This document shows, piece after piece, positions 2,951 through 52,764 of a DNA stretch of 64,000 nt. Every line of letters starts with the position of its first letter. Positions within the stretch are counted from its first letter, which is position 1. Source of the DNA: an uncultured Candidatus Saccharibacteria bacterium. Lineage in GTDB: Bacteria > Patescibacteriota > Minisyncoccia > Phycocordibacterales > UBA9973. The notes under the pieces are model-generated. The model was not told the DNA's origin. It did not search any database and was given only the letters and a program-made list of their open reading frames with translations. Both the position numbers and the translations under genes were made by a program. The stretch is taken from assembly GCA_964450735.1 (NCBI GenBank), contig CAYVDC010000004.1, positions 18,829-82,828 of the forward strand. Direction: 5' to 3'.

Positions 2951-3340
2951 CAGTGGAACTGGCGAGAATTGAACTCGCGTGCAAGAAGGAATGTAATATA
3001 GATCTACAAGCTTAGATCGTTTCAGGGTGTTTAAATACCGATGCTATGAAACAAACAAAATACAGCGGTATCGATTCTCAATTTATTTCAGGCTGTACGC
3101 GAGACGACGCACTTCCCTATCTCTAGATGTATGATATCCGATTTTCGCCTCTAGTGATCAACGAAGCGGATATCCAGATGTCGCGTTAAGCGAGGGCTGG
3201 AGCAAAATCTCCGAACGCAAAGTAAGGAGACTTTGTAAATGCAGTTTTTGCATTTGAGGTTTGCGCGATTATCACGAGATTCCGCACATACTCGGCATGC
3301 GTATACTACAAACGACTTCCTGTCGATGCCTGGCAGTCCC
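2951..3340 (-). ncRNA. ssrA: tmRNA (SsrA), CCA not encoded
   Basis: Minus-strand 5' end GGGACUGCCAGGCAUCGACAGG matches the tmRNA 5' acceptor plus the GGAUUCGACGGG motif. The 3' end has T-arm GCGAG-UUCAAUU-CUCGC, then CAGUUCC-A, which pairs with 5' GGGACUG (one G·U). Putative tag ORF runs from GCA (about nt 88) to ...GCU CCA GCC CUC GCU UAA (tag ends ...FAPALA). smpB is directly upstream on the same strand. Confidence 0.7.
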
Positions 3341-26629: not shown

Positions 26630-28144
26630 CTAGTTTGAGGGAGAAAGAAGCTTTTCTTCTAGTTTTTCAATAAAAGTATCTCTTGTCGTCCCCTCTTCAA
26701 GAAGACATTCAATAGCTGAGCTCAAGTGGTACTTGATCACAGCAGCGGGAAGCTCATCAATATTGTCGATGTTGTCACATAAAATAGTCCAAACCAAATT
26801 AGGATCAACTTTGTTTAGAAGTTCCGTATACTCTCGACGCTCGCTAGATGTAAGTTGTGTGCCTAAAGGATCCAATGATTCAGTAAGTTTGCCACGCATT
26901 TCATCAAACAACTTCGCTTGTTCAAATGAACCAGTAAAAGTCTTAAATAATTCTGCGTGGGGCGTAAACTTTGAATCGATACTATCTTTTTGAAGCATCC
27001 CTTTTTCACCAAAAGCGAATTCTCTCACTTTGTCTTCCTGTGTTCCAAGGTCGGCAAGATCAGGATATGCATCATGGATTTCCTTGAACAAAGGATCTGT
27101 CGCAAATCTCTCCGGGCTGATAAGCCGGAAAAACCCAAAGGCATACGCTTTCATTAAGTACTCTTTGGTATCTTCTGCAAGTTCTCTATCAGAAATGCCT
27201 GCTGTGGCTTTTTCTACCGAATGCAGGTAACTATTCATATGGCTTCGAATATACCGCATGATCGCAGGACGTTCTGAAACAAATTCTTCAAAAACAGACT
27301 GGTGAAAATTGAGGGACCATAGTTCCCCAGCAAAGACTGAGCTTGATACGCTAGCATCTTGAATTGGAGTGTTATTAAAATCTCTCGTTAAAGATTCATT
27401 TCCACCCGCAGCAAGGATCACGCTATCTGCGGAATTCGCACCACCAGGCAAGAATGCTGTATGCGAAATAAGATCATGATTGAACCATGTTGCCATTTCT
27501 TGCAGTTTTGTAGCAATATTTTTTGACTCTGAATTTTGACGGATCTGTGCAAGCGGTTCTTCTTCCAAGACGATAGTGCCCTGATTGAATCCAGACATGG
27601 TTGGGTGAAACTTATCACGAAAATGTGAGAAGCCGAACAACAATTCCCAATTGCGCTTTTTATTTACCATTATTGGATCAAAAAATCCTAACGATACTTT
27701 TCTTCCATCTTCAAGCTGTTTGGTTCCCGCAAGCATTACCCCATTGATGCTTTTTTCTTTTCTTAAATCCTTCAGCTCTTTAAAATATTCTTTTGAAATA
27801 AGCGATGTTGTAGCAGAAACTACCGTTTTATCAGGCATTGTTTTTGCAAGGACATCATGTTTTTCTATTGAAACTTTTTCTATTGAGACGCCGGCGACCT
27901 TAAAAAATGGATCGTTCTTTGCATTAATCTCTGGATCAAATCCGAGAGTGCTTTTGACAGTTTTTTTGTATAAATCTATCTCCTCGTTTCGGATCTGCTC
28001 GAGCGTATAATCTGATAGATCATCCATAGACCTGGAAAAAGCTTCTGTGACTTCTTCATTGCTTTTGAATAGTAAATTCTCTTTGTTTACCAATAATTTT
28101 CCTTCTGTCTTTTTGTTATTCTCGATTGCTGGCATTTCCATCAT
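26630..28144 (-). CDS. hypothetical protein, 504 aa, no recognisable domain; monocistronic insert between secY and adk
   Basis: Long ORF flanked on both sides by intrinsic terminators. Confidence 0.5.
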   Translation of the reverse strand: MMEMPAIENNKKTEGKLLVNKENLLFKSNEEVTEAFSRSMDDLSDYTLEQIRNEEIDLYKKTVKSTLGFDPEINAKNDPFFKVAGVSIEKVSIEKHDVLAKTMPDKTVVSATTSLISKEYFKELKDLRKEKSINGVMLAGTKQLEDGRKVSLGFFDPIMVNKKRNWELLFGFSHFRDKFHPTMSGFNQGTIVLEEEPLAQIRQNSESKNIATKLQEMATWFNHDLISHTAFLPGGANSADSVILAAGGNESLTRDFNNTPIQDASVSSSVFAGELWSLNFHQSVFEEFVSERPAIMRYIRSHMNSYLHSVEKATAGISDRELAEDTKEYLMKAYAFGFFRLISPERFATDPLFKEIHDAYPDLADLGTQEDKVREFAFGEKGMLQKDSIDSKFTPHAELFKTFTGSFEQAKLFDEMRGKLTESLDPLGTQLTSSERREYTELLNKVDPNLVWTILCDNIDNIDELPAAVIKYHLSSAIECLLEEGTTRDTFIEKLEEKLLSPSN

Positions 28145-29521: not shown

Positions 29522-29953
29522 TTACTTGACTGCGCCGCCTGCAGCGACAATTTTATCTTGTGCCTGCTTTGAAACTTTGCAGCCGGAGAACAAAAGAGGA
29601 ATTGAAATGTTTCCAGTTGCCAAGATCTTCACGACCGGTTTTGAACCTTTCGGATAGGTCACGAGCTTCTTTTCACGCAATGACTCAGGAGTTACCTGGT
29701 CGTTCTTCTGGAATGCTGTTTCAAGAGCGCTCAAGTTGACGACGCAAGCTTTTCCCTGAAATGAATGAAAACGGTAACCGCGAAGCTTTGGGAGCTTCTT
29801 GATGATGACGCGCAATTCTGGATATTTTTTGTTTCCAGCTCGAGCGTTCTGACCTTTGGTACCACGACCAGAAGTCTTACCTCGTTTTCCTCCACGTCCT
29901 ACTTGAACGTGTTTTTCATTTGGATTTTTTCGTTTGAGTTGATGTAACTGCAT
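29522..29953 (-). CDS. rplO: 50S ribosomal protein L15
   Basis: L15 KRGKTSGRGTKGQNARAG… motif. Confidence 0.9.
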   Translation of the reverse strand: MQLHQLKRKNPNEKHVQVGRGGKRGKTSGRGTKGQNARAGNKKYPELRVIIKKLPKLRGYRFHSFQGKACVVNLSALETAFQKNDQVTPESLREKKLVTYPKGSKPVVKILATGNISIPLLFSGCKVSKQAQDKIVAAGGAVK

Positions 29954-29957
29954 AAGA

Positions 29958-30662
29958 TTACTCCTTTACTGGGGCTGCAGCAGCAGCTTCAGGTGCTTTT
30001 ACTTCGACCGGTCCCATTCCTCGCTTGGTAGCGATTTTAGAAAGAGCTTTGATCGTCACACGGGCGATGTTGAGCTTGTTCTTTGAACCTGAGTTGATTT
30101 TTGAAGTGACGTTTGAAATACCGGCGAGGTTCAAGATGTCGCGAGTTGCTGATCCTGATACCAATCCTTTACCGTTGTTCGGTCGGATCATAACGCTTGC
30201 GCTTGAGTACTTAGCTGCTACTTCATGAGGGATCGAGCCTTTCTTGTTGAGATTGATCTTGATCATCTGCTTGCGAGCGCTTCGTACTGCTTTGTTGATT
30301 GCGAGCGATGTATCGCCTGCCTTTCCTGTTCCGACTCCGACTGATCCTTTCTTGTCGCCGATTGCAATTGAAACTGCAAATGACATACGTCGTCCTCCTG
30401 ATACCACACGGGTAACGCGGCGGATTGAGATCATCTTCTGTTCGAATTCAGGCTTTGGTCGGTCAAATGAAGGACGTCCTCGGCGATCTCCGCCTCGGCT
30501 TCCTCCTGGTCCGCCAGTTCGTGGGCCTGAAGAGCTACCTGCGCCTCGAGGACCTCCTGGTCCGCGTGAGCCTGCACCTCCACGAGCACCACCTGCACCT
30601 GCTGGTCGAGCATGAGCTGGACGAGCTGCTGGGGCTGCTGTTGTTGGTTTTGTGTCTGCCAT
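29958..30662 (-). CDS. rpsE: 30S ribosomal protein S5 with an approx. 75-aa Gly/Arg/Pro-rich N-terminal extension and an Ala-rich C-terminal tail
   Basis: S5 core …IRRVTRVVSGGRRMSFAVS…GKGLVSGSATRDILNLAGI… The extension is encoded by a locally GC-rich stretch. Confidence 0.9.
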   Translation of the reverse strand: MADTKPTTAAPAARPAHARPAGAGGARGGAGSRGPGGPRGAGSSSGPRTGGPGGSRGGDRRGRPSFDRPKPEFEQKMISIRRVTRVVSGGRRMSFAVSIAIGDKKGSVGVGTGKAGDTSLAINKAVRSARKQMIKINLNKKGSIPHEVAAKYSSASVMIRPNNGKGLVSGSATRDILNLAGISNVTSKINSGSKNKLNIARVTIKALSKIATKRGMGPVEVKAPEAAAAAPVKE

Positions 30663-31997: not shown

Positions 31998-32183
31998 TTA
32001 CCATGATGACTTGCGTACTCCAGGAATCATTCCTTCGTTTGCAAGTTCACGGAAACAGATTCGGCAAAGGCCGAAATCCCGCATGAATCCTCTACCGCGA
32101 CCACAGCGAAAACAACGATTTTTCGCTCGTGTGGAGAACTTTGGCTTTTTTAACGATCGGGCAACAGTTGATGTTTTTGCCAT
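31998..32183 (-). CDS. rpsZ: 30S ribosomal protein S14 type Z (zinc-binding, 61 aa)
   Basis: [61 protein letters not shown] has the CxxC…CxxC pattern. Only the C-terminal part of listed ORF 31998–32357 is coding. Confidence 0.85.
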
Positions 32184-32524
32184 ACTTAAAAAGCTACTTT
32201 TTTTAATAAATTCATCCTCCAATATCGCGCTTGGGCTCATGAGATGCTTAATTGGGCAAAAACCCTGTAAGCACAATATGAAACCGAACGGATTAAGAAG
32301 ACAAAAGCACCATGACCGGTGCTTTCGACATAATAGCAGAAATGGGTGAAAAGTCAATAATTATTACTGACAACCTTCGATACCAGGATCCATATCTATA
32401 ACGCATGGTGAGCCCCACTCCGTATTTACTACATCCATAAAGTTAGGATTTAAATTAAATTGCTTGGTGTACACTAAAAAAGAAGCTCCAATAAGAACTA
32501 TTTGAATAATGAATAGTTTTTTAA

Positions 32525-33022
32525 TCATATATAAACAACAGGTATATTAAAAAATACAATAATAAGGAATCGCGAAATTATCTGGCATAAAGTAAAAAGT
32601 ATAACAGTTAGAAGCAATTGTTTTTTAAATTTCCCTCTGCGGTATGGAAGATATGTTACCAAGATTGGTAAAATAACGACAAAAATATAACCGGTAGTGA
32701 AAAGCAATATAGTATTTCTTGGTTGAGTTACTATGCTTTCTTGCAGAAGAGCACGTACATTAGGAAGAATAGTCAAAACAATATGAGCAATACTCCCTAC
32801 TACAAGCAACCAAAAAGACCATTTAGCTAGGGTCGCATCACTTGAATCAGAAACTGGAGCCGGGATTGGCGTTGGAATTGAAGCTGATCCAGTAAGAAAA
32901 CTTGCTTCTGTTATCTCCTCATCTTTCCAACCTTGAGCGACCAATGTGGGGCGATAGACGGATTCGGGAATACCTGCTGCTTTTTGTTTTTGTATATATG
33001 AGACCAGATCCTGGTTTAACAT
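32525..33022 (-). CDS. membrane protein: N-terminal 40-aa soluble motif (L..YIQ.Q...G...E.I...L...GW..EEI.E.F) plus 3–4 TM helices; inserted between rplE and rpsZ
   Basis: N-terminal DLVSYIQKQKAAGIPESVYRPTLVAQGWKDEEITEASF, then hydrophobic helices. Paralogous N-terminus to the gene at 49756–50520. Confidence 0.5.
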   Translation of the reverse strand: MLNQDLVSYIQKQKAAGIPESVYRPTLVAQGWKDEEITEASFLTGSASIPTPIPAPVSDSSDATLAKWSFWLLVVGSIAHIVLTILPNVRALLQESIVTQPRNTILLFTTGYIFVVILPILVTYLPYRRGKFKKQLLLTVILFTLCQIISRFLIIVFFNIPVVYI

Positions 33023-33048
33023 ACACAGAGTATATCAGACCGTATAAA

Positions 33049-33080
33049 AGAAAAACACCCAGTAACGGGTGTTTTTCTTT
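33049..33080. terminator. intrinsic terminator aaaaacaccc-agtaac-gggtgttttt
   Basis: Seen directly, immediately after rplE. Confidence 0.7.
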
Positions 33081-33088
33081 TTGAAGTT

Positions 33089-33643
33089 TTATTTAGCAGC
33101 TTCTGCTGACTTGAACGGCACCCCGATCAACTCAAAGAACTTTGTAGCTTCTTTTTTGTTTTTCGCTGATGTGACGATAGTGATCGCCAAACCGAAGATG
33201 TCTTTCAATTCTTCATCTCCAGTCTCAGGAAAGATGCTGTGCTCTTTCACTGGGATAGTGATGTTACCGATGTCGTCTACGATGCGTCGCTCGAGACCGC
33301 GGAAGTCCTTTGTTCGAGGAAGTGCGATGTTGAGGAGCTTGTCGAGGAACGAGTACATGCGAGTATTTCGGAGTGTGACTGCAACGCCGATAGCGTCACC
33401 TGCACGAACCTTGAAGCTCGCAACTGATTTCTTTGCCTTGCGGAGAGTTGGCTTCTGGCCAGTGATCTTCGCGAGACGATCAAGAATGAAGTCGTTACGG
33501 TTCTTGTCTTTCTTGATAGCGCTTCCAGTTCCAACAGATATTACTACCTTCTGGATCTTTGGAGCAGCCATCTTGTTCTTGTAGCCGAACTCGCCTTTCA
33601 TTGATGCGATCGATTCTTCTGCTTTTGCTTTGACTGATTTCAT
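33089..33643 (-). CDS. rplE: 50S ribosomal protein L5
   Basis: L5 motifs …PKIQKVVISVGTG… LRNTRMYSFLDKLLNIALPR…. Confidence 0.9.
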   Translation of the reverse strand: MKSVKAKAEESIASMKGEFGYKNKMAAPKIQKVVISVGTGSAIKKDKNRNDFILDRLAKITGQKPTLRKAKKSVASFKVRAGDAIGVAVTLRNTRMYSFLDKLLNIALPRTKDFRGLERRIVDDIGNITIPVKEHSIFPETGDEELKDIFGLAITIVTSAKNKKEATKFFELIGVPFKSAEAAK

Positions 33644-36815: not shown

Positions 36816-37084
36816 GTATAGGGTTTCTCGAACGACCTTATAAAATAAGGCTATTCGGTTATTAAAGCAAGGAAAGTAATGGTATTCCTTGCCAAGTTAA
36901 CAATAATAATTTACTAGTTTCAAGCCCGAAATCCGGGTTTGAGACTAATTAAAAGGGCTCTTTCGAGGAGCCGATGGGGTCAGATTAGCAGGAAATGGGC
37001 TGAATGTCAAATATAACCTTGATTTTATTGACGAAAGAGCAGTTTATGGTAAGGTAAGAGGTATTTCCTCATTAAAACCTGAAT

Positions 37085-38623
37085 ATGGAACGATTAAAAA
37101 ACAAAGACCTCATCAAGAAAATTTTTGACAGAGGCATAGTTGGGACCAATTTCCTTAAACCTATCACCTTCAAATCGCGTATCCGTTCATGGATATATTG
37201 CGACTGGCGCAAAGCCTGCGGCCACCCCGATTTGATGGATGATATAAAAGAGGGGCTTGCAGAGATTGTAAGAACCGCTCCTATTACAGCTGATGCAGTA
37301 TTTGGAGTAGCAACCGGTGCTATTCCGCACGCCACGCTTCTTGCGCAGCACTTAAAGCTGCCATTTGGCTATGTGCGCCCTGATGCCAAAGCAAAAAATT
37401 ACGGCTTAGGCAAAAGAGTAGAAGGCACTGATGTAAAAGGCAAAGTAGTATTATTGGTAGAAGACTTAAACTCAACAGCAACCAGCATGATAGAAAATGC
37501 TGCTATCTTAAAAGAAGAAGGCGCTGCCGAAGTTATTCTGTTATCAATATTTACTTACAACCTGGCAGAAGCAAATGCAAATATTGAGAATTCCGGCTTA
37601 CGGTACTACTCATTACTGAGCATTAATGACTTATTGCCGTACTTGAAGGAACAATTGGATGTAGATCAATTTGTATCTGCAACTGATTGGATACAAGACC
37701 CACGCGCATGGTTTGATAAATACAAAACCACATTCAATTTTGGTTTTCTAACCACACTTCGTAAATCGGCAAAACAAGCCGGTAACATTGCGTGCATGGG
37801 CCTTGATCCTGTGCTGGAATCACTACCAAATGAATTCAGCTCGCAAGGGGTTCGGGGCATATACAGCTTTTACAAAGTTTTGTTTGAGGCAATGCGCACT
37901 GCAAATCTTTCGCCGGCGATGTTTAAGCCTAATGAAGGATTTTTCTCTTCACTCAATAATGGCTTCGAAGGAAGCTTTGTGGGAGACGAAACTTTGAGCA
38001 AGGTTAATGCGTTGGTAAGAGATATTTTCTTTGGCATTCCTCTTAATATAGATGCAAAGAGAGGCGACATTGGAAAATCATCAGATAATTACGCTAAAGA
38101 GTATTACTGTGGTTGGAAAACTGAAGCCATGACTATTCATACTTACATGGGCAAAGATTCAGTTATGCCTTTTGTTAAATACTGTTCAGCCGAAAAATGC
38201 TGCGGAGTATACGCATTAGACAGAACATCGAACCCCGGCGGTAATGATTTTCAAACACTGCTTATCGGCAATGAACCGCTTCATAGTATTGTTGGCGGAA
38301 AAATTATCGAATGGGGCACGGGCGCTTATGGTTTGGGAGCAGTAGTAGGAGCAACATCTATCGAAGAACTTTCTTTTTTAGCTAAAAAGTTTGCAGGTAA
38401 AGATGTTCCATTACTTGTTCCTGGCGTTGGCGATCAAGGCGGTAAAGCGCCTGATGTGATGCATGCGTTACATATGGCGAAGTACGAAATAGAGTTGGCG
38501 CGCATTAACAGCTCGTCAAAACTAACACACCCTTGGGGAACAAACGAGGCACCGAGTAACTGGCTTGAACTTTGTTTAAACAATATTAAACAGTTATGCC
38601 ACGAAACAAACATTGCGGCATAA
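37085..38623 (+). CDS. pyrEF: bifunctional orotate phosphoribosyltransferase / OMP decarboxylase (pyrE–pyrF fusion, type-2 OMPDC)
   Basis: N-terminal half has the PRTase type I PRPP loop VVLLVEDLNSTATSMIENAA and the OPRT flexible loop. C-terminal half has CMGLDP, NIDAKRGDIGKSSDNYAKEY and LLVPGVGDQGG, the three type-2 OMP decarboxylase signatures. Confidence 0.75.
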   Translation: MERLKNKDLIKKIFDRGIVGTNFLKPITFKSRIRSWIYCDWRKACGHPDLMDDIKEGLAEIVRTAPITADAVFGVATGAIPHATLLAQHLKLPFGYVRPDAKAKNYGLGKRVEGTDVKGKVVLLVEDLNSTATSMIENAAILKEEGAAEVILLSIFTYNLAEANANIENSGLRYYSLLSINDLLPYLKEQLDVDQFVSATDWIQDPRAWFDKYKTTFNFGFLTTLRKSAKQAGNIACMGLDPVLESLPNEFSSQGVRGIYSFYKVLFEAMRTANLSPAMFKPNEGFFSSLNNGFEGSFVGDETLSKVNALVRDIFFGIPLNIDAKRGDIGKSSDNYAKEYYCGWKTEAMTIHTYMGKDSVMPFVKYCSAEKCCGVYALDRTSNPGGNDFQTLLIGNEPLHSIVGGKIIEWGTGAYGLGAVVGATSIEELSFLAKKFAGKDVPLLVPGVGDQGGKAPDVMHALHMAKYEIELARINSSSKLTHPWGTNEAPSNWLELCLNNIKQLCHETNIAA

Positions 38624-38649
38624 ATAATGCCAAGATTAATTAAAAGAAC

Positions 38650-38686
38650 AGCGGGTCGAGATTAAAATCTCTTCCCGCTTTTTTAG
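38650..38686 (+). terminator. intrinsic terminator agcggg…cccgct + tttttt
   Basis: Seen directly after pyrEF. Confidence 0.55.
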
Positions 38687-38739
38687 TTGCCTTATTTCCC
38701 TTTTTATGGGATAAATGGCCAAACAAACGTACTCTACAC

Positions 38740-39738
38740 ATGAGAAAAATAACCTTTACCTACGGTGGCTTCAATAATGCCTTCCGTGTCATGCCAGGAG
38801 CTGGCATTGCAAAAACCATTGAGGATGTAAAAGCCTTGCTCAAAAACAAGGACATCACCATCATCGTATTTGGCTCTATTACAGTTTTGGGACGCAACGG
38901 AAACGACGGCAACCAAATGTACATAGATCCCAAAGGCGAGTTTACTGTTAACTCAGTTGGTATGACCAACCTCGGCAAAGAAAAGTACAAAACAGTACTC
39001 AGAGAAATTGTTGAGCTTGTTCACGAAGCTGGTAAAAAACTTGTGGTAAGCATCGCTGCTGTACAGTCATACAAAGAATACTCTGAACTGCTTCAGTTCT
39101 GCATCGAGTGCGGCGCAGACGGCGTTGAACTAAACTTCGGCTGTCCTAACGTTGTTGACGGTGGTACAAGTCACGCAATACCAAGCTTTGATCCGGAAAA
39201 CCTTCGCATTACGCTTGAGTACATTGAAAATGAGTTTGGCGGCACAGTGCCTATACCAGTATGGGTGAAAATTTCACCGCTCATACATGAACACACGATG
39301 GTTCGAACCGTCGCTTCTAGTAAACCTATCGAATACACATTTGCGCTTAACAAAGACTTGGCGAAAAAAGTTTGCGATGTACTGAACGGATTCAATTTCA
39401 TAAAAGCAGTAGTATGTTGCAACACTATCGGCAATGTATGCGCGCTTGATGAAACTGGAAAACCGATGATTGGGCCGAACAGCAACAATCCCAAAAATAC
39501 CGGCGGACTTTCAGGAAAAGCAGTGCATGCGATAAGTGTACGGCAAACCATGTTTTTTAGAGCAAACTTGAAACCAACCATTGATATTATTGGTGCAGGC
39601 GGCAATGAGACAGGCGAAGACATGGACGACTTTATTAGAGCAGGAGCTGCTGGAATTCAGGTAGTTTCTCCATACTATCGGAACAAAGATCCCTTCGTAT
39701 TCAGCAATATTGCATCTTTATACGTCTTACTTGATTAA
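38740..39738 (+). CDS. pyrD: dihydroorotate dehydrogenase, class 1 (catalytic Cys)
   Basis: LNFGCPNV (N.SCPN with Cys), GGLSGKAV, IIGAGGNETGEDMDDFIRAGAAGIQV match DHODH motifs. No pyrK nearby. Confidence 0.8.
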   Translation: MRKITFTYGGFNNAFRVMPGAGIAKTIEDVKALLKNKDITIIVFGSITVLGRNGNDGNQMYIDPKGEFTVNSVGMTNLGKEKYKTVLREIVELVHEAGKKLVVSIAAVQSYKEYSELLQFCIECGADGVELNFGCPNVVDGGTSHAIPSFDPENLRITLEYIENEFGGTVPIPVWVKISPLIHEHTMVRTVASSKPIEYTFALNKDLAKKVCDVLNGFNFIKAVVCCNTIGNVCALDETGKPMIGPNSNNPKNTGGLSGKAVHAISVRQTMFFRANLKPTIDIIGAGGNETGEDMDDFIRAGAAGIQVVSPYYRNKDPFVFSNIASLYVLLD

Positions 39739-39762
39739 CGAACTACTTACGTACGATATATT

Positions 39763-39792
39763 CGGCCTTCGGAAACGAAGGCCTTTTTTATT
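39763..39792 (+). terminator. intrinsic terminator ggccttcg-gaaa-cgaaggcc + tttttt
   Basis: Seen directly after pyrD. Confidence 0.7.
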
Positions 39793-39843
39793 GTCTTTTT
39801 TGATTTCCATGGTAATGTGTGAGCAACTAAATTCCATTAAAAC

Positions 39844-41070
39844 ATGAAACTGAACAACAACCAGCTGAAAAAAGTATTGGCATTTTTGCACAATATGGGC
39901 CTTACTGATGTAACCGAAGAAGACATACTACAAATAGTAGAGAATGACTTCGACGGCCATGCCCATGCACGCAAAGGCGCACAGACCAAAATCATCATTC
40001 CGCAAATGAAACAAGTTTCTGTTGCAGCATTTTATATGCCTAATGCAACCGTCAATGAAATTGGCGATAATGAAATCGGAATTACCTCCTACGAAAAATT
40101 GATGTGGTACCGCAATCATATTTTAGAAGAATGCGGCCCAAATTTTTTACCGCTCTTTTCTTTATACCTTTCAGAAAAACTTTCCGTGGCTGACATTGAA
40201 CGGGCATGGAAAGAAAAGCTGATTTCCGGTATCAAGTATTATCCAAAGGGTGCGACCACAGGCAGTGAAGGCGGCTCAAGCGGCTTTGCAAAACTGCGTG
40301 CACAATTGGAATGCATGAACGATCTTAAAATTACTTTTAACATGCATGGTGAAATACCCACTATCGACGGCATCAACCCCGTACCTGGCGGAGAACGCGA
40401 ACCTTTATTCTACCGAACCGAAGGTGAGGAATTACTGCAATGGTACACAGGACCAATTGTTGCTGAACATATCACAACATGGGAAGGCGTTGAGTTTACG
40501 AAGCGGTATGACAATGTAGTAGCTACGCTCACACCTCAACATTGCTTGCTTAGCAATATGGCAATCTTTCATAAAGTAAAAGCAAACAACGATTGGTATA
40601 ACTACGCCATAAAAATGGGTCTGTGCCCTAGCATGATATGCGCGCCAGTCCTAAAAGAACAAACGCAAGTTGCCGCCATATGGCAAGCACTTATTTGGCA
40701 GTATCGCCAAAAAAAGAAAAAGTTCTTCAAAGGTACTGACACTGCACATCACCCACCGCACGGAAAATACAAAGAAGAATGCGACTGCGGCGTGTACAAC
40801 TCACCGATACAGATGGAAATGTATTACATGCTGTTTAAATACCTCGACACATATTCGTGCAAAGGTATTATGGACGACTTTCAACGGTTTATGAGCGATA
40901 TTGGTATGGAGTTTTATGGGATTACCGGCAAGGTAACAAACAAAACCATAGCTATTGTACGTACGCCAAACAAAATCGAAGCCGAATACGGCGGAGCAGT
41001 GCCACCATTTGCTGGTGAAACGCTTCCTTGGAAGGCAATCGATATAACTGCCGCCTTGGCAGACGAATAA
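39844..41070 (+). CDS. pyrC: dihydroorotase, class II-like (amidohydrolase superfamily)
   Basis: DGHAHAR metal motif. IKYYPKGATTGSEGG resembles E. coli PyrC KLYPANATTNSSHG. GTDTAHHPPHGK resembles the LGTDSAPH… motif. Confidence 0.7.
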   Translation: MKLNNNQLKKVLAFLHNMGLTDVTEEDILQIVENDFDGHAHARKGAQTKIIIPQMKQVSVAAFYMPNATVNEIGDNEIGITSYEKLMWYRNHILEECGPNFLPLFSLYLSEKLSVADIERAWKEKLISGIKYYPKGATTGSEGGSSGFAKLRAQLECMNDLKITFNMHGEIPTIDGINPVPGGEREPLFYRTEGEELLQWYTGPIVAEHITTWEGVEFTKRYDNVVATLTPQHCLLSNMAIFHKVKANNDWYNYAIKMGLCPSMICAPVLKEQTQVAAIWQALIWQYRQKKKKFFKGTDTAHHPPHGKYKEECDCGVYNSPIQMEMYYMLFKYLDTYSCKGIMDDFQRFMSDIGMEFYGITGKVTNKTIAIVRTPNKIEAEYGGAVPPFAGETLPWKAIDITAALADE

Positions 41071-41094
41071 TTACAACACTAAAAAAACCTATGT

Positions 41095-41125
41095 CCCCGT
41101 TTCGAAAGAGACGGGGCTTTTTGTA
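41095..41125 (+). terminator. intrinsic terminator ccccgt…acgggg + cttttt
   Basis: Seen directly after pyrC. Confidence 0.6.
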
Positions 41126-41155
41126 CCAAAGCGTTTTTTCGTATATAGTGGAGCT

Positions 41156-41956
41156 ATGAAGATCGGCATATTTGATTCAGGCCTCGGAGGACTTTTCATC
41201 ATGAAAAGCATTGTTTCGAGCTTGCCACAATATGACTATATCTACCTCGGAGACACCTTACGCCTTCCCTACGGAGATCGCGACCAGGCCACCATCCAGA
41301 CGTTTCTTCGAAACGGAGTGGACTATCTGTTTAAACAAGGCTGCGTGCTCATCATAGTTGCCTGTAACACCGCCTCAGCAGAAGCTCTGCGTCAGATACA
41401 GCAAACATATCTCCCCGAATGCTATCCCGATCGCCGCGTACTCGGCGTGATCATCCCTGCAATCGAAGAAGCTATGCGCGGCGACCGAGTCGGCGTCCTT
41501 GGGACCATGGCCACAGTGAAGTCTCGTACCTACGAAAAAGAATTCAAAAAAAAGAGCAGCCATATTCGCGTCTTTCAACAAGCAGCGCCGCTTCTCGTTC
41601 CCATGATTGAAAACGGCGAATGGAACCTCATCGAGCCCGTACTGCGCGAATACTTGCAGCCGCTTTTGGAAAAAGATATCGACACACTCGTCCTCGGCTG
41701 TACGCACTACCCTATTTTGAAAAAAGAAATCCGCAATATCATCGGACCGGAGGTCCATCTCGTCTGTCAGGATGAATTCATCGACAAGAAACTTGAGGAC
41801 TACCTCAAACGTCATCCTGAGATCAGCGACAGACTTTCCTCAAACGGAACACGTGAATTTACAATTACAAAAACTAGCGAGCATTTTGAAAAGCTCGCCA
41901 AAGAATGGTTCAACAAAGACATCGAACTAAAAGTTATTGAGATTCCGGAGATCTAG
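41156..41956 (+). CDS. murI: glutamate racemase
   Basis: IGIFDSGLGGL, IVACNTAS, LGCTHYP match MurI motifs. Confidence 0.85.
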   Translation: MKIGIFDSGLGGLFIMKSIVSSLPQYDYIYLGDTLRLPYGDRDQATIQTFLRNGVDYLFKQGCVLIIVACNTASAEALRQIQQTYLPECYPDRRVLGVIIPAIEEAMRGDRVGVLGTMATVKSRTYEKEFKKKSSHIRVFQQAAPLLVPMIENGEWNLIEPVLREYLQPLLEKDIDTLVLGCTHYPILKKEIRNIIGPEVHLVCQDEFIDKKLEDYLKRHPEISDRLSSNGTREFTITKTSEHFEKLAKEWFNKDIELKVIEIPEI

Positions 41957-41972
41957 AAAATAAAATTACATC

Positions 41973-43136
41973 CTACTTTTCCACCTGCGCTTCATCGATA
42001 ATTCTTGAAGCCTCGCGCCCAAACGTAGTGACAATCTCTCGACAAGCGGCAACAAATTCCTTGTCTTCGAATAAACTCGTATCGATCTCCTGAGAACTGT
42101 CATTTTGACGATCATATTCTCCAAGAAAAGCTCCGTATGTTGAAAAAAGGTTTTCAATCTCTGCATTCATTTTTCCATACAGGTCAGCAAGCTTGGACTC
42201 CGACTGGGTCATTTTGATCTTTTGATCCTGTTTAAGCTTGGCGAACAAACCGCCAACGAACAGTTGAGACTCAGCAATAAGTCGAAACGTACTTTTGCCA
42301 CTGAATTCAGTGGGCCGTATTTCAAGACGGCAAATATTACGCGCCTGTTTCTTCATTTTCCTCGATTTCTGAGTACGCCCTGACTTTATGAGAACCGAGT
42401 TTGCTGTTTTGCGTTTTTTTATGCGATCAGCTGTGACAAATGCGTAGGTTAAAATATCGGTCACGCGTTGCACGTGGTTGCGTGTTTCCGAATCTTCAAA
42501 TGTTAATCCTTCTGGAACACCAAAATTAAGATGAAGGGAAAGTGAGCCAGGTATGATTTCTCTTTCTCCTGAAACAGGATTGTCTTGTGTCGGCAATATA
42601 TCAAGCATGCCAAGTTCTTGGAGGACTCGCGCCTGTGGTCCGGGACTATAAGAAAAGTTCGGATTAACTTCAAAAAGCATTTCTGATTCCTGATCAGTAT
42701 GTACGTCGAGAAGATCGAAAGTTTTTTTGTAATCAAGCAATTCTTCAGTTTCGGGTATTTCAACTTCGATGCCGATTGTAGGCAACGGATTGGTTTTGCT
42801 CATATACTTCTCTTCTTTCTCTGAGTAGTATCTCATCTCCGCATATTCATTCGCCAGATCCGTATCAGTGGCATGCGGATTCTGCTTAAGAAATGTAAAA
42901 AGATGCAACCGCGCCATAGGCATGACAGTCGGTTCAAGCTCTCTGAACATTCTGGTGAAATCGATTACTCGCTTGGCTAGACCTGAATATTCTTTTGATT
43001 TTGGGCTTTCGTTCGTTATCTCAGGCTCAAAGAGGCCTTCTTCTGGAGGTAAATCAAATCCATCATCGATGCCTTCATACGATTCTTCAGGTATTTGGGT
43101 TTTGGGCCTAGGGGCACCAATAAATCTCTCTTGCAT
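41973..43136 (-). CDS. hypothetical protein; weak resemblance to GCS2/YbdK-type carboxylate-amine ligases (amidoligase fold)
   Basis: TIGIEVEIPE (G.E.E), SLHLNFGVPEG (H.H), ICRLEIRPTEF (E.R) occur in the order seen in glutamine-synthetase-like GCS2 enzymes. Length 387 aa is close to YbdK. Low certainty. Confidence 0.35.
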   Translation of the reverse strand: MQERFIGAPRPKTQIPEESYEGIDDGFDLPPEEGLFEPEITNESPKSKEYSGLAKRVIDFTRMFRELEPTVMPMARLHLFTFLKQNPHATDTDLANEYAEMRYYSEKEEKYMSKTNPLPTIGIEVEIPETEELLDYKKTFDLLDVHTDQESEMLFEVNPNFSYSPGPQARVLQELGMLDILPTQDNPVSGEREIIPGSLSLHLNFGVPEGLTFEDSETRNHVQRVTDILTYAFVTADRIKKRKTANSVLIKSGRTQKSRKMKKQARNICRLEIRPTEFSGKSTFRLIAESQLFVGGLFAKLKQDQKIKMTQSESKLADLYGKMNAEIENLFSTYGAFLGEYDRQNDSSQEIDTSLFEDKEFVAACREIVTTFGREASRIIDEAQVEK

Positions 43137-43138
43137 AA

Positions 43139-43540
43139 TTATGAATGGAAATAGGAAATAAGCTTTGGGATGAAAATAATGCAGCCGATCACGATTGCCG
43201 CGATAGCTGAGAGTAACACTGCGCCAGCTGCGACGTCTTTGGTATCACGAGCGAATGGATGTTCCTCTGGACTGGTAAGATCAATATCAAATTCAATTGC
43301 GGTATTGAATGCTTCCGCGAGAATGACGATTGAAATAGCAAGCACGATTGCGAGCCACTCGCTTTGGGTTATCCGAAAAAAGAAACCGAGAAACACGGCA
43401 ACTGCCCCAGCTAGCAAATGGAGCCACATATTGTGCTGAGTTTTTAGTAATACAAAGATACCGCGTAGCGCATATTGGAAGCTCTTGCCTCGCTTTACCA
43501 CGCTGAATGCTTCAAGTTCTTTGGCTGGTTCATCAAACAT
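43139..43540 (-). CDS. dgkA: prokaryotic diacylglycerol kinase / undecaprenol kinase family (DgkA)
   Basis: Three TM helices and signature LAEAFNTAIEFDID (A.E..N.AIE…D). Confidence 0.7.
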   Translation of the reverse strand: MFDEPAKELEAFSVVKRGKSFQYALRGIFVLLKTQHNMWLHLLAGAVAVFLGFFFRITQSEWLAIVLAISIVILAEAFNTAIEFDIDLTSPEEHPFARDTKDVAAGAVLLSAIAAIVIGCIIFIPKLISYFHS

Positions 43541-43612
43541 AGGGTAAGTATAGCAGAGTATGCGAAAGGGGGAAATTGATACCTTAGATCTCTTTGGTGT
43601 ACAATTTTGAGT

Positions 43613-43650
43613 AGAAAAAATGCCCCGCGTGTAGGCAGGGCATTTAAATA
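43613..43650 (-). terminator. intrinsic terminator aaatgccc…gggcattt + T-run on the minus strand
   Basis: Seen directly downstream of the 43665–44135 gene. Confidence 0.6.
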
Positions 43651-43664
43651 AAAATCTTATACGA

Positions 43665-44135
43665 TTAGGATGTTTTTTGTGATGGATGATGTAGGTATCT
43701 CAGAAGTTTTTGCTCAAATGCGCTAAATTTCTGTGTTTTTTTCTTAGCTGCTTTTCTAGGCTTATTGTGCATAATTTGAACAATCATGTATATGGTATAT
43801 ATAAATATCAGTGCGCCGATAATAGACGCCCATGATAAATAAGGAACCCATTCAACACGGTACATTAGAATCAAGCATGCCGGAATAGTTGTGAGCGTAA
43901 GCATGCTCGCAACAAAAGCAGAAACCTCCTGATCAAGGAATATCCGAGCAAGATTGTACACGCAAACACACATACCAAACGATAATCCGAGTAAAACAAA
44001 AAAACCTTCAATACCCTGCAAGTAACGGGGGTACTGAAAGAGCGTGTACTCATCGAGCGGCAGCAATCTGCCTGCAAAGAAATTCATGCAAAAAGTAATA
44101 CCAAGAGCGGCGGAGAGGGTAACGGTTTTCTTCAT
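43665..44135 (-). CDS. hypothetical polytopic membrane protein (156 aa)
   Basis: Four hydrophobic helices. Own promoter (TTCAAA-N16-TACAAT at 44168–44194 on minus) and own terminator. Confidence 0.45.
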   Translation of the reverse strand: MKKTVTLSAALGITFCMNFFAGRLLPLDEYTLFQYPRYLQGIEGFFVLLGLSFGMCVCVYNLARIFLDQEVSAFVASMLTLTTIPACLILMYRVEWVPYLSWASIIGALIFIYTIYMIVQIMHNKPRKAAKKKTQKFSAFEQKLLRYLHHPSQKTS

Positions 44136-44167
44136 AAGTGTTTTTTCTTTTAAAGTGTGTACGAATG

Positions 44168-44194
44168 ATTGTAACTAGAGTACACCTGATTTGA
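44168..44194 (-). promoter_or_regulatory. sigma70-like promoter TTCAAA-N16-TACAAT for the 43665–44135 gene
   Basis: Seen directly, about 35 nt upstream of the ATG. Confidence 0.3.
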
Positions 44195-44312
44195 ACAAAA
44201 GTCGAGAGCTAAAATTTCTACTACAATCGTAACTAATGTTACATAAACATTTGTTACTGAGTGGCTGCACGCGCCTGATCGCTGAGTTTTAAAAGTATCA
44301 CGCGGCGCGCGG

Positions 44313-44360
44313 TGATGCCCCTTCCGGGGCATCAAAAAACCACGCTTGCAGGCGTGGTTG
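44313..44360 (-). terminator. rplB terminator: aaccacgc-ctgcaa-gcgtggtt + tttttt, followed by a second hairpin gatgcccc-ggaa-ggggcatc
   Basis: Seen directly downstream of rplB on the minus strand. Confidence 0.65.
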
Positions 44361-44389
44361 ATTGAAAATTTCTCTCTTTGTTTGTGTGA

Positions 44390-48631: not shown

Positions 48632-48842
48632 AAGCTTTTTTCTTCGATTCCTGGGTGAAGGAGAGATGACGAGAACGCGTATCTTTCCCAAACCTATGAA
48701 TCAATAAAGAACAAATACTAGTTATTAATTGGCTGGATTGACTGTCCAGACCATGTTTATTTACTTTTGTCAAATTTGGCAAAAATAAAAACGCCCCGAA
48801 GGAGCGATCAGAGATAGAATACCCTATCTGGCCTTATAAGTC

Positions 48843-49126: not shown

Positions 49127-49600
49127 TTAAGGTTTTTTATATACAACAAGCAGAATGGAAACTACGGTACCGATAATACCTACCATATTTATCCATGTCA
49201 GGGTCTCAAGCCTCTCAAATAGAGGCGCAGCAAGCCGATTGACGGCAGGAACTCCAGCCATGACTACTGCCATGCAAATGATAGCGCTGACATTCGACGG
49301 ATCGCTAATTTGAGCAAAGGTGATCATACCGCTTACATTGAGAAATGCAGCAAGTGCAACAAGCGCCAGAGCAAATCCTACTGGCAGCGCACTGGTTTGG
49401 TATGACAAATCTTGTTTAGGGGAAAAAGCAAAAACCAATGCAGCAGCAACCAGAAACCCAATGCCAAGAAAAAGAAGAATCCATGCAAGCGGCAGTCCGG
49501 CTTTGCGGGAAAGAAATGGCCACAGAGCCCAGACAAACAAAGTAAATACTGTTCGGAAGATTATTTTTGTTTCCATAGTTAACAGGGATTGGGTTTTCAA
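49127..49600 (-). CDS. hypothetical polytopic membrane protein (157 aa; alternative start METKIIF at 49576)
   Basis: Four or five hydrophobic helices. Inserted between fusA and tuf. Confidence 0.45.
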   Translation of the reverse strand: MKTQSLLTMETKIIFRTVFTLFVWALWPFLSRKAGLPLAWILLFLGIGFLVAAALVFAFSPKQDLSYQTSALPVGFALALVALAAFLNVSGMITFAQISDPSNVSAIICMAVVMAGVPAVNRLAAPLFERLETLTWINMVGIIGTVVSILLVVYKKP

Positions 49601-49649
49601 ATTTGTTTCTTATGTGTATATAACCATGTGCGGTTTGTAAATGCAATAC

Positions 49650-49746
49650 AAAAGCCGGGCGCGCTTGATTTACCGATAGGTAAATCACTTCGAGCAGCGT
49701 GATAGTGCAAATCCTGTCACCACGCGAGAAGCAGCGCCCGGCTTTT
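49650..49746 (-). other. 97-nt structured element: 13-bp perfect GC-rich closing stem (aaaagccgggcgc / gcgcccggctttt) enclosing internal hairpins (e.g. gatttacc-gata-ggtaaatc)
   Basis: Seen directly between the two membrane-protein genes. T-run follows on the minus strand. Confidence 0.45.
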
Positions 49747-49755
49747 GATCTATAT

Positions 49756-50520
49756 CTAATTCACCTGCATATTCATCTGATACTGCTGATTCTGAAAATT
49801 CGGCTGTTCATTCATTACTTGTGTAGAAGGGAAAAACAATTTTAGTATCCCTACCCCTGCCATTGCTCCAATAACTGCAAACACAGCAAATATCGCAATA
49901 CCAAATACCAGCCAGAGACCAAACACTGCAAGTGTTTTGAGCACTGTAACAGAATAGTAATACCAGAATATCGCCAAGTTGAAGACAAGTCCGAGAATAG
50001 GAACAAGAAACGGCGGCATACCTGCGTATGCTAAAAGTACCAACACAAACGTAACCGCAAAGCTCAACCCTCCATAAAAGAGTGCCTTGCTAAATGTGCT
50101 TCCAGGAATTTTTAAAAGCTTTGTAATCAAATACAGCACGATTGCACCGATCAGTCCTGACACGAATGTAATTGCAGCGCTCAAGCCGATAAACGATGGT
50201 ACTGCAAATGTTCCTGACACCAGCGCGAGATAGCCAATGTTCAGCAGGCATCCTGCTAAGTACATTACCGCTCCGATCGCAAGAGTCGGATTTTTTGCTG
50301 CGTGCATGAATTCAGATTCGCGAGTCGGCGCGTAGACCGACTGTGCTTGCATCTGCTGATTGTATTGTGGCGGTGGCACTGGATTTTCTAATTCATAAAA
50401 TCCTTCGCTGATCTCTTCGATCGGCCATCCGTGCGACTGGAGTGCGTAAATAATTTCTTCGCGACGCAGCCCTCTTTGTTGTTGTGTCTGAATGAAATTC
50501 AGCAGTTCTGGTTTTGCCAT
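49756..50520 (-). CDS. membrane protein with the same N-terminal 40-aa motif as 32525–33022, plus 6 TM helices and a Gln/Asn-rich C-terminus
   Basis: N-terminal ELLNFIQTQQQRGLRREEIIYALQSHGWPIEEISEGF aligns with the 32525–33022 product. Confidence 0.5.
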   Translation of the reverse strand: MAKPELLNFIQTQQQRGLRREEIIYALQSHGWPIEEISEGFYELENPVPPPQYNQQMQAQSVYAPTRESEFMHAAKNPTLAIGAVMYLAGCLLNIGYLALVSGTFAVPSFIGLSAAITFVSGLIGAIVLYLITKLLKIPGSTFSKALFYGGLSFAVTFVLVLLAYAGMPPFLVPILGLVFNLAIFWYYYSVTVLKTLAVFGLWLVFGIAIFAVFAVIGAMAGVGILKLFFPSTQVMNEQPNFQNQQYQMNMQVN

Positions 50521-50565
50521 ACGTACAGTATAAAATAATGTTGCTAATGTGTGAACTATACAAAA

Positions 50566-50596
50566 TAAAAACCCAAGCCGAAGCCCGAGTTTTTAT
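50566..50596 (-). terminator. terminator after fusA (aactcgggc-ttcg-gcttgggtt, with G·U pairs, then ttttt)
   Basis: Seen directly. Confidence 0.45.
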
Positions 50597-50604
50597 TTCG
50601 AATA

Positions 50605-52764
50605 TTATTTTCGCTTTGAGATGATAAGGTCTGCAACGTTCTGAGGAACAACATCGTAACGGAGGAATTCCATAGTGAATCCTGCGCGTCCTTCTGTCAT
50701 TGATCGGAGCGATGTCATGTAGCCGAACATTTCTGATAATGGAACGACAGCTTTGACCACCTGGTTCAAGCCGCGAGCTTCCATTCCTTCGATGATTCCG
50801 CGCTTTGATGACATTGATCCAGCAACGTCTCCCATGAACTTGTCAGGAGTGATAACTTCAACTTTCATCATAGGTTCGAGGATCACTGGGCGAGCCTGCT
50901 TGGCTGCATCCTGGATAGCCATAGATGCTGCGATCTTGAAGGCCATTTCGTTCGAGTCCACATCGTGGAAGCTTCCGTCCCAAAGATCAACTGAAACGTC
51001 AACCATTTTGAATCCAGCGAGCACGCCACGTTCGAGACCTTCCTTGAGTCCTTTTTCAACTGCAGGGATGTATTCCTGTGGAATCGCACCTCCTTTAATT
51101 GTGTTCATGAACTCGAAGTGAGCTTCTCGTTTAACGTTTCGTGGCAAGTCTTCGATCTGCTCTTTGGTAAGAGTCATATCCATCGGCTTGATCTTGATCT
51201 TGACGTGACCATAGTTACCACGACCTCCAGACTGCTTGATGTACTTACCTTCAACTTCAGCAGTTCCCAAGATTGTTTCGCGGTATGCAACCTGTGGGTT
51301 ACCTACGTTTGCTTCAACAGCGAATTCGCGCTTCATTCGGTCAACGATGATTTCAAGGTGAAGTTCTCCCATACCTGCGATGATTGTTTCGCCAGTTTCC
51401 TGGTCAGTAGTCACGCGGAATGTTGGGTCTTCCTGAGCGAGGCGGTTAAGTGCCATACCCATTTTTTCCTGGTCAGCTTTTGTTTTTGGTTCGATTCGGA
51501 GGGAGATAACTGGTTCTGGGAAGACGATTCGGTTCAATTCGATTGGATTTTCTTCATCACAGAGCGTGTCTGAAGTAATAGTGTCTTTCAAACCGACGGC
51601 TGCAGCGATTTCTCCTGCGAACACCTTCTTCACTTCTTCTCGGTCGTTAGCATGCATTCGCAAGATACGTCCGATTCGTTCCTTGTTTCGAGTTCGTGGG
51701 TTGTAGATGTATGAACCTGCAGCCAAGCTACCAGAGTAGACTCGGAAGAAGATAATCTGTCCTACGAATGGGTCAGTAGCAACCTTGAAGGCAAGAGCTG
51801 CAAATGGTTCTGAATCAGAAGCATTTCGGACAGCTGGTTCTTCAGTATCAGGGTTGATACCTGGAATTGGAGGAATGTCAGTTGGGGCTGGCAAGTAGTC
51901 AATAACAGCATCGAGTACGAGCTGTACGCCTTTGTTCTTGAGAGCTGATCCTGCGAACACTGGGAAGATCGCGTTTGCGATAACTGCCTTTCGGAGGATC
52001 TTTTTGAGTTCATCTACAGATGGAACTTTTCCATCGAGGTAAGCGGTCATAGCGGCCTCATCGTTTGCAACGATAGCTTCGATGAGTTCTGTGTGATACT
52101 TTTCAGCATCAGCTTTCATGTCTTCAGGGATATCTTTTTCGATAACCTTGTTTCCCATGTCTCCTTCGAAGTAGTACGCCTTCATTTTCAAAAGGTCTAC
52201 TACACCTTCATGCTTTTCTTCGAGACCGATTGGAATCTGCATGCGGACAGCTGACTTGTTCAAACGATCAAGAATCGTTGCGAATGAACGTTCAAATGAT
52301 GCGCCAGTTCGGTCGAGCTTGTTGATGAAACAGATACGTGGAACGTTTGCTTCGTCAGCATAGCGCCAGTTTGTTTCTGACTGTGGTTCTACGCCGGCTA
52401 CTCCGTCGAATACCACTACCGCACCGTCAAGCACGCGGAGTGATCGCTTCACTTCCACAGTGAAGTCGATGTGTCCAGGAGTATCGATGATGTTGAATCG
52501 CATTTTCTTGCTCTTGTCTGCACCTGCGTATGTAGGTGTCCAGAAACAAGTAACAGCAGCTGAAGTAATTGTAATACCTCGCTCGCGTTCCTGTTCCATC
52601 CAGTCAGTGGTAGTTTCACCGTCGTGAACTTCACCGATCTTGTGTGACACACCCGTGTAGTACAACACGCGTTCTGTCGTCGTAGTCTTTCCGGCATCAA
52701 TGTGGGCGATGATACCGAAGTTTCGCACTTTTTCTAATGGGTAATCTCTTTCCATAAAACTCAA
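50605..52764 (-). CDS. fusA: elongation factor G (likely start MERDYPL at 52755)
   Basis: …[24 protein letters not shown]… plus all EF-G domains, 719 aa. Confidence 0.95.

Follow-up and report, generated by a model that had tools for sequence, protein, structure and literature searches.

Two membrane proteins encoded in a patescibacterial ribosomal gene cluster share a widespread N-terminal module with a predicted cytoplasmic location

Two genes in a ribosomal gene cluster encode proteins with the same N-terminal module

We analyzed a stretch of 64,000 nucleotides (hereafter, the window) from an uncultured Candidatus Saccharibacteria bacterium, comprising positions 18,829 to 82,828 of the forward strand of contig CAYVDC010000004.1 (GenBank assembly GCA_964450735.1), and focused on two membrane protein genes, A and B, that lie among its ribosomal protein and elongation factor genes. 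The products of both genes start with a short three-helix module. It is this module, unannotated, predicted to be cytoplasmic and widespread in Patescibacteria (the candidate phyla radiation, CPR) and in archaea labelled DPANN, that is of interest here, rather than a translation-linked pair of paralogues, and it represents a new family of domains whose fold is a common one. The two genes, their modules and their neighbours are as follows (TM, transmembrane; ORF, open reading frame; HMM, hidden Markov model; AF2, AlphaFold2).

49756-50520, minus strand: gene A, 254 aa, with the module, a disordered Q/P-rich linker, five TM helices and a Q/N-rich tail (ORF list and AF2 model)
50398-50520, minus strand: three-helix module of A, residues 1-41 (six-frame HMM match, 56.7 bits)
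50605-52764: fusA, the upstream neighbour of A
49127-49574 (alternative end 49600), minus strand: polytopic membrane ORF between A and tuf, 149/157 aa, five TM helices
47432-48631: tuf, on the far side of A from fusA, beyond the preceding ORF
32525-33022, minus strand: gene B, 165 aa, with the N-terminal module, a P/S-rich linker and three TM helices (ORF list and hydropathy scan)
32903-33022, minus strand: three-helix module of B, residues 1-40 (six-frame HMM match, 62.5 bits)
33089-33643: rplE, the upstream neighbour of B
32364-32528, minus strand: ORF54, signal-anchor ORF of 54 aa, starting at an ATGA overlap with the stop of B
31998-32183: rpsN/Z, a short zinc-type S14 gene downstream of B (Pfam Ribosomal_S14)

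The N-termini of A and B aligned significantly. BLASTP matched residues 1-51 of A to residues 1-56 of B (17/56 identities, E=4e-6), and the Smith-Waterman score of the first 45 residues was 60, compared with 19.5 +/- 4.0 for shuffled sequences, none of which reached 60 in 20,000 trials. A profile that excluded A, B and all their orthologues and was built on about 170 further instances of the family scored 55.3 bits for A and 60.8 bits for B. Both proteins carry G17, L27, G31 and W32. These scores indicate that the two N-termini are homologous over about 41 aa, in agreement with the N-terminal domain of approximately 40 aa proposed in a sequence-only reading of this DNA. The coordinates given there for both ORFs are right, the quoted peptides match exactly, and the multiple TM helices were also recovered (five in A by AF2, three in B by the hydropathy scan). 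That reading further described the two as paralogous membrane proteins, which is too broad. Their membrane parts are dissimilar (best BLASTP E=0.77), so A and B are not whole-protein paralogues, and what they have in common is a mobile module that is fused to very many unrelated architectures.

In the AF2 model of A (predicted local distance difference test score, pLDDT, 71), the N-domain helices (4-15, 20-29 and 34-45) are followed by the linker (residues 46-77, disordered at 46-69), TM helices at 78-101, 108-135, 143-165, 172-189 and 193-229, and the disordered tail. A Foldseek search with this full-length model returned no meaningful structural match in the PDB for the five-TM part. The linker of B spans residues 43-64, and the K/R-rich loop YRRGKFKKQ between its TM2 and TM3 fits an orientation with the N-terminus inside (N-in). 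Searches of A, B and their N-termini against Pfam and NCBIfam gave sub-threshold noise only (for example GLOD4_N, DUF2231 and SpiroCoCo_C), and the 149/157-aa ORF between A and tuf has no family assignment.

Full-length relatives of A are scarce. A full-length protein search with A returned A alone, a scan of genome contigs with the alignment of A and its orthologue P0074 found no matches, and a metagenome scan recovered the P0074 contig as the sole full-length orthologue, so the family of full-length A is tiny. P0074 (254 aa, 42% identity over the full length) is placed directly after fusA, as is A (GCA_013565695.1, locus L006). The orthologues of B, P0003 and P0004, have 45-46% identity, and P0004 (45%) lies between L5 and S14, as does B, in a gap that is enlarged to six genes (GCA_964535545.1, locus L002). 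A and B are thus stable residents of their cluster positions.

The overlap of B with ORF54 suggests translational coupling. ORF54 corresponds to a longer protein in a relative (L002, 6755-7324), secreted or anchored and 189-193 aa in length, but is truncated: the two share MIKKLFIIQI... and PCVID.DP...GCQ, and the C-terminal approximately 135 aa are lost in the window copy.

The module occurs in a large family of membrane and surface proteins

We searched 1.84 billion representative proteins exhaustively with HMMER, using only a four-sequence profile. The domain is conserved well beyond the two genes, being detected in at least 1,117 protein clusters (50% identity) at E<=1e-3. Cluster names read "hypothetical" throughout, and literature searches turned up no account of the module. 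Neither Pfam, NCBIfam nor the PDB contains a family that covers it, and it lacks a name; its fold class is ordinary.

The consensus is M-[IV]-N-Q-x-L-[LVI]-x-Y-I-x-x-Q-x-x-x-G-[VI]-S-x-E-x-I-x-x-A-L-x-x-x-G-W-x-x-E-D-I-x-E-A-F, with conservation above 90% at G17, L27, G31 and W32. Architectures and Pfam matches were counted in the best 145 members of the family. The module begins at residue 1 in 130 of them, at least one TM helix is predicted in 119 and exactly one in 71. In 109/145 members the module starts the protein and leads via a low-complexity linker to at least one TM helix, a layout that A and B also show. The linkers are rich in Pro, Ser and Lys and have a median length of 33 residues. 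The module itself has a median net charge of -2, and its helix 3 is acidic.

Two or more copies are present in 24/145 members. Giant proteins have a signal or anchor, a huge extracellular region and one C-proximal TM helix followed by 4-8 tandem modules; another carrier has more copies.

P0024, 1,436 aa: giant-protein layout, tandem modules after the TM helix
P0030, 2,364 aa: giant-protein layout, tandem modules after the TM helix
P0006, 2,842 aa: giant-protein layout, tandem modules after the TM helix
P0102: 13 module copies after its TM helix

Together these four giant carriers span 1,358-2,842 aa, and their 4-13 tandem copies make up the predicted cytoplasmic tail. Other multi-copy forms include P0005, with three copies and then a C-terminal anchor, and P0010, which is soluble.

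The orientation was examined from the charges around the first TM helix, where K+R was 2.87 on the N-terminal side and 1.14 on the C-terminal side (N>C in 70 proteins, N<C in 12). Since the module starts at Met1, no signal peptide can stand before it. The positive-inside count, together with the position of the module after the last TM helix in the giants, supports a cytoplasmic location in both arrangements, with a predicted N-in orientation. A role as a prepilin leader was rejected, as the sequence after the module has no genuine prepilin cleavage site motif.

The predicted fold is a three-helix bundle

From an alignment of 68 sequences with A first, AF2 modelled the module with high confidence (pLDDT 91) as a three-helix bundle (helices 4-15, 20-29 and 34-45), with conserved turns at G17 and G31-W32. 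All Foldseek E-values of this model against the PDB exceeded 1, as expected because it has only 47 residues. The best superposition was with one RecX repeat (3c1d; TM-score 0.80, root-mean-square deviation 0.5 Å over 39 residues), followed by the PEX14 N-domain (TM-score 0.75). In a sequence profile search of the PDB, only de novo designed HHH miniproteins were matched at E<1e-3, with weak UBA and PEX14 matches below. No Pfam family covered the module in the 145 members. RecX_HTH1 was the commonest match (8/145 members), as summed sub-threshold fragments and mainly in multi-repeat proteins, and models of DUF494, UBA and assorted helix-turn-helix (HTH) families matched sporadically.

The RecX repeat (Pfam RecX_HTH1/2/3; PDB 3c1d, 3dfg) is like the module in its three-helix topology, and RecX has tandem repeats, as do some members of the module family. 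RecX differs in being a soluble RecA regulator with exactly three repeats, whereas the module is acidic and occurs as a single copy on membrane proteins; A and B have one repeat each, TM helices and no RecX Pfam match at E<=10.

The PEX14 N-domain (PDB 5oml, 4bxu) is also a small N-terminal three-helix bundle before the TM segment of a membrane protein, and it docks short WxxxF/Y motifs of a soluble partner, which offers a functional analogy for the handle proposed below. Unlike the module-bearing proteins, PEX14 is a eukaryotic peroxisomal protein, and the resemblance is structural only (sequence E=0.5-1). To our knowledge, the conserved G-W turn of the module family is absent from PEX14.

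RodZ has a cytoplasmic N-terminal HTH, a linker, a single TM helix and an extracytoplasmic domain, and binds MreB. The 71 single-TM family members resemble it in overall layout and N-in topology, and the cytoplasmic helical domain of RodZ is a protein-interaction site rather than a DNA binder. The HTH of RodZ is longer and of the XRE type, and RodZ is encoded by a single-copy gene, whereas the module decorates many unrelated proteins per genome; no XRE/HTH Pfam match covering the module was found in A, B or the 145 members. The comparisons with PEX14 and RodZ are meant as analogies, not as claims of membership.

UBA and UBA-like domains resemble the module in size and in their helix-turn-helix-turn-helix pattern. 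Weak matches were obtained to the UBA domains of ACK1 and Cbl among PDB sequences (E=0.1-0.5) and, in one multi-repeat member, to Pfam UBA; none was significant, and A and B had no Pfam UBA match. No ubiquitin-like system is implied by this resemblance.

The family is typical of Patescibacteria and extends to archaea

One genome per GTDB species was scanned with the narrow degenerate pattern M[IV]NQQLL[DE], which yielded 61 confirmed loci, nearly all of them on records with Patescibacteria titles (Kaiser-, Nomura-, Falkow-, Uhr-, Adler-, Yanofsky-, Komeili- and Tagabacteria, Saccharibacteria, Minisyncoccia and Paceibacterota). Archaea account for two loci, L063 (2594-2716, Woesearchaeota) and L064 (6001-6612), the latter being truly archaeal because an eRF1/Pelota-type gene (10020-11117) lies 4 kb away. 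This implies that the module is common to CPR bacteria and archaea; the family is typical of Patescibacteria and is also present in some archaea labelled DPANN. At L064, a PKD/Ig giant protein is encoded upstream of the module gene.

Seven loci carry titles of Gammaproteobacteria, Spirochaetia or Bacteroidales (L012, L019, L028, L036, L045, L029 and L054), labels that appear unreliable. The gene content of such contigs and their similarity to CPR loci suggest mislabelling or mis-binning.

The module genes appear to be frequent within genomes. Several metagenome-assembled genomes (MAGs) yielded two loci despite the narrow pattern, and another 5 copies were found in about 540 kb of DNA flanking the 61 loci, a density of roughly one per 100 kb. 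The window has 2 in 64 kb, which at this rate is not far above the base rate.

Module genes of one orthologous subgroup (L030, L043, L049, L050, L052, L054 and L058) are preceded by the conserved sequence GGGTATTTTTT-N-TGTTAGAATATA...ATG. Recurrent neighbours within the subgroup are secA, RNase HII and dnaE-like genes, each in 6-7 of the 61 loci.

Genes A and B are flanked by predicted transcription signals of their own

The sequences around A and B contain the following predicted signals (SD, Shine-Dalgarno).

50556-50604, minus strand: intrinsic terminator directly after the fusA stop, a UUCG-loop hairpin with U-run (-21.5 kcal/mol, z = -8.8, 0/200 shuffles as stable)
50521-50555, minus strand: promoter-like site of A, TTCACA-17-TATACT, then 6 nt to the ATG; no SD
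49645-49750, minus strand: branched hairpin directly after the A stop, 106 nt, with a GC-rich closing stem and U-run (-51.7 kcal/mol, z = -6.7)
48792-48806, minus strand: terminator-like hairpin with T-run upstream of tuf, only modestly better than shuffles (z = -2.4)
33023-33088, minus strand: region containing the intrinsic terminator after rplE, hairpin at 33046-33081 (-23.3 kcal/mol, z = -5.9)
33029-33034, minus strand: TATACT of B, 6 nt before its ATG
32302-32327, minus strand: hairpin closing the B-ORF54 unit upstream of rpsN/Z, 11 bp with a U-rich tail (-16.2 kcal/mol, z = -3.4)

The structured flanking regions, including the 106-nt hairpin, had no Rfam match. The latter is probably a terminator of unusual length, or may be a small structured RNA or 3' end. 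In the orthologous loci the arrangement is kept, with a terminator and TATACT-N8-ATG for A (L006) and a terminator and TATACT-N6-ATG for B (L002). The sequence-only reading had treated the two genes as embedded in operons. The predicted terminators and promoter-like starts point the other way: A and B are probably insulated units outside the fusA-tuf and spc transcripts, and would not be co-transcribed with their neighbours.

With the TATACT-N6-ATG spacing, the expected transcription start coincides with or adjoins the A of the ATG, as in a leaderless mRNA. The same arrangement precedes A (50521-50532), B (33023-33034) and dagK (about 43541-43552). An SD-like sequence was present in only 2 of 34 confident window genes, and the genome seems to initiate largely without SD, so an SD-less start was rejected as a family-specific trait. 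TANNNT occurred 5-9 nt before the ATG in 36 of 63 family genes (57%), compared with 36% of 476 control ORFs.

The gaps of the ribosomal cluster accept many kinds of genes

We inspected the 61 other family loci for ribosomal genes within about 6 kb and found them at 3, with none at the remaining 58. One locus (L066) has a 377-aa single-TM member inside the L5|S14 gap that is not an orthologue of B, another (L038) a 451-aa member between secY and adk, and the third (L027) is 5 kb from rpsL/rpsG. As 3/61 is about equal to the 2-4% of a small genome that is occupied by such clusters and their flanks, no family-wide association is indicated, and no neighbour family occurred at more than 7 of the 61 loci.

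The L5|S14 junction is a recurrent insertion site. In L066 (4119-9194), from another Patescibacteria MAG, the module gene shares this gap with FolC, a Pif1/RecD-like helicase of 622 aa and, on the opposite strand, a toxin-like ORF of 144 aa. The cluster in the window is itself interrupted repeatedly. In its S10-type part, a 7.5-kb block (36816-44389) separates rpsS from rplB and contains the following genes, along with two ORFs without family and one small membrane protein.

37085-38623: fusion of a phosphoribosyltransferase and an orotidine monophosphate decarboxylase (pyrE/pyrF-like)
38740-39738: dihydroorotate dehydrogenase-like gene
41156-41956: Asp/Glu racemase
43139-43540: dagK

Further interruptions are a 504-aa ORF between secY and adk (26630-28144, minus strand), with no convincing Pfam match, and, separating rpsG from fusA, one of about 550 aa. 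A 509-aa gene without Pfam match is also located between secY and adk in GCA_964535545.1 (L002, 12196-13725).

The sequence-only reading had offered a family prone to inserting at these loci as one explanation. Members at L5|S14 (L066) and secY|adk (L038) favour this weakly; with helicase, FolC and toxin-like genes in the same gaps and many other inserts in the window cluster, it is the gaps that look generally permissive. In the simplest reading, the cluster junctions of this lineage tolerate inserts, and an abundant family lands there at times. An enrichment of family genes in the gaps is not shown by these counts.

The module as a candidate cytoplasmic interaction handle

The reading that we favour, and to which we give somewhat better than even chances, is that A and B are unrelated membrane proteins bearing a common cytoplasmic interaction handle, and that their place in the cluster reflects the abundance of the family, tolerant gaps and self-contained gene units. 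We infer the handle from a mobile, acidic and tethered module that many unrelated membrane proteins carry in 1 to 13 copies. It would act in protein-protein contacts on a flexible Pro/Ser/Lys-rich tether, docking many membrane and surface proteins either to one shared partner in the cytoplasm or, by self-association, to one another. Two forms are seen, one with a single copy that begins at residue 1 and precedes the first TM helix and the other with 4-13 tandem copies after the last one. The presence of the genes in the ribosomal and elongation factor cluster would follow from a family with about one copy per 100 kb of CPR DNA and from insert-tolerant gaps between operons. Each of the two genes is probably an old and self-contained unit, with terminators on both sides and a TATACT-N6-ATG start of its own.

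Several points weigh against this reading. No neighbour gene recurs consistently across the 61 loci to point to a partner, and the binding function is deduced from architecture and sequence. The most conserved residues (L6, Y9, I10, I23, L27, W32, I37 and F41) could all belong to the core, so conservation alone does not establish a surface for interaction. Promoters and terminators were called solely from consensus matches and predicted folds, and these AT-rich genomes often have TANNNT close to an ATG, as the 36% among controls indicates. Finally, the base rate predicts somewhat fewer than the two family members that occur among roughly a dozen inserted genes in a single cluster. The alternatives (a plug or tag, nucleic-acid binding, or a link to ribosomes or elongation factors) nevertheless fit the evidence less well than the interaction handle.

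The module could instead serve topology or biogenesis, as a fast-folding N-terminal bundle that blocks translocation of the N-tail and so sets the next signal-anchor N-in, or that is recognised as a tag by a membrane-insertion pathway, with no stable partner. The start at Met1 in 130/145 members, before a linker and TM helix, would suit such a device, as would the positive-inside count in favour of N-in and the frequent leaderless-type starts of family genes. However, neither the 4-13-copy arrays after the last TM helix of the type-I giants nor the soluble multi-copy P0010 is an N-terminal plug or tag, and conservation above 90% at G17, G31 and W32 exceeds what a generic folded plug would need. 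We consider this explanation unlikely.

A membrane-tethered HTH that binds nucleic acids, RecX-like or regulator-like, with DNA, RNA or RecA as the ligand, appears improbable. The RecX repeat gave the top structural superposition, and weak summed RecX_HTH1 matches occurred in 8/145 members, mostly multi-repeat ones. Yet the domain is acidic (median net charge -2), helix 3 (x-E-D-I-x-E-A-F) has no conserved basic residues, A and B lack any RecX/HTH Pfam match, all Foldseek E-values are above 1, and the three-helix bundle is a very common fold.

Very little probability was likewise assigned to a translation-linked function, the other suggestion of the sequence-only reading, in which the module or A and B themselves would bind ribosomes or elongation factors, for example to tether them to the membrane, with selection for co-expression. 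Consistent with it, the orthologues of A and B hold their positions at only 42-46% identity, two more unrelated members lie in spc-cluster gaps (L066 and L038), and secA, infB or prfB adjoin some family loci. On the other side, no ribosomal gene lies closer than about 6 kb to 58/61 loci, and the remaining three are near expectation. Strong intrinsic terminators are predicted to part A from fusA and B from rplE, each followed by a promoter-like start, which speaks against membership in a translation operon. The corresponding gaps in relatives house helicase, FolC, toxin-like and secreted proteins, and the window cluster has also taken up the 7.5-kb insert of pyrimidine and lipid genes. Two look-alike genes in a ribosomal cluster are therefore no evidence for a translation-linked membrane function.

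A chance or compositional resemblance of two N-termini with separate origins might be considered for a domain of about 41 aa with only 30% pairwise identity, but is ruled out by the exhaustive family search and the leave-out profile scores (55-61 bits), along with the 0/20,000 shuffles and the invariant G17, L27, G31 and W32 common to more than 1,000 family members.

Patescibacteria and DPANN proteomes contain many uncharacterised membrane and secreted proteins that are thought to mediate episymbiosis (PMC10849945). As a tentative and, on balance, doubtful extension of the interaction-handle reading, the module might be the common docking handle of an unrecognised sorting or scaffolding system specific to ultra-small episymbiotic prokaryotes. 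Such a system would position or cluster hundreds of membrane and giant adhesin-like proteins, or link them mechanically to the cell interior, with a valency of 1 to 13 copies, and its sharing between CPR and DPANN would presumably be due to horizontal transfer. The module is short, readily recognised and confidently predicted, and marks the predicted cytoplasmic end of more than 1,000 protein families, including giant surface proteins. It could be used in practice as an annotation handle where no Pfam or NCBIfam model exists, as a topology marker and as bait for a cytoplasmic partner.

Other features of the window

The ribosomal proteins of the window have 50-80% identity to their counterparts in Patescibacteria MAGs. 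The rpsE gene (29958-30662) abuts rplO (29522-29953), with no L30 gene (rpmD) between them, and a missing L30 gene is a CPR trait (PMC9297842). No tRNA genes were found across the whole 64-kb window; a tmRNA gene was detected at 2951-3340 on the minus strand (Rfam, 115 bits), with the tag peptide AQTSNAKTAFTKSPYFAFGDFAPALA.

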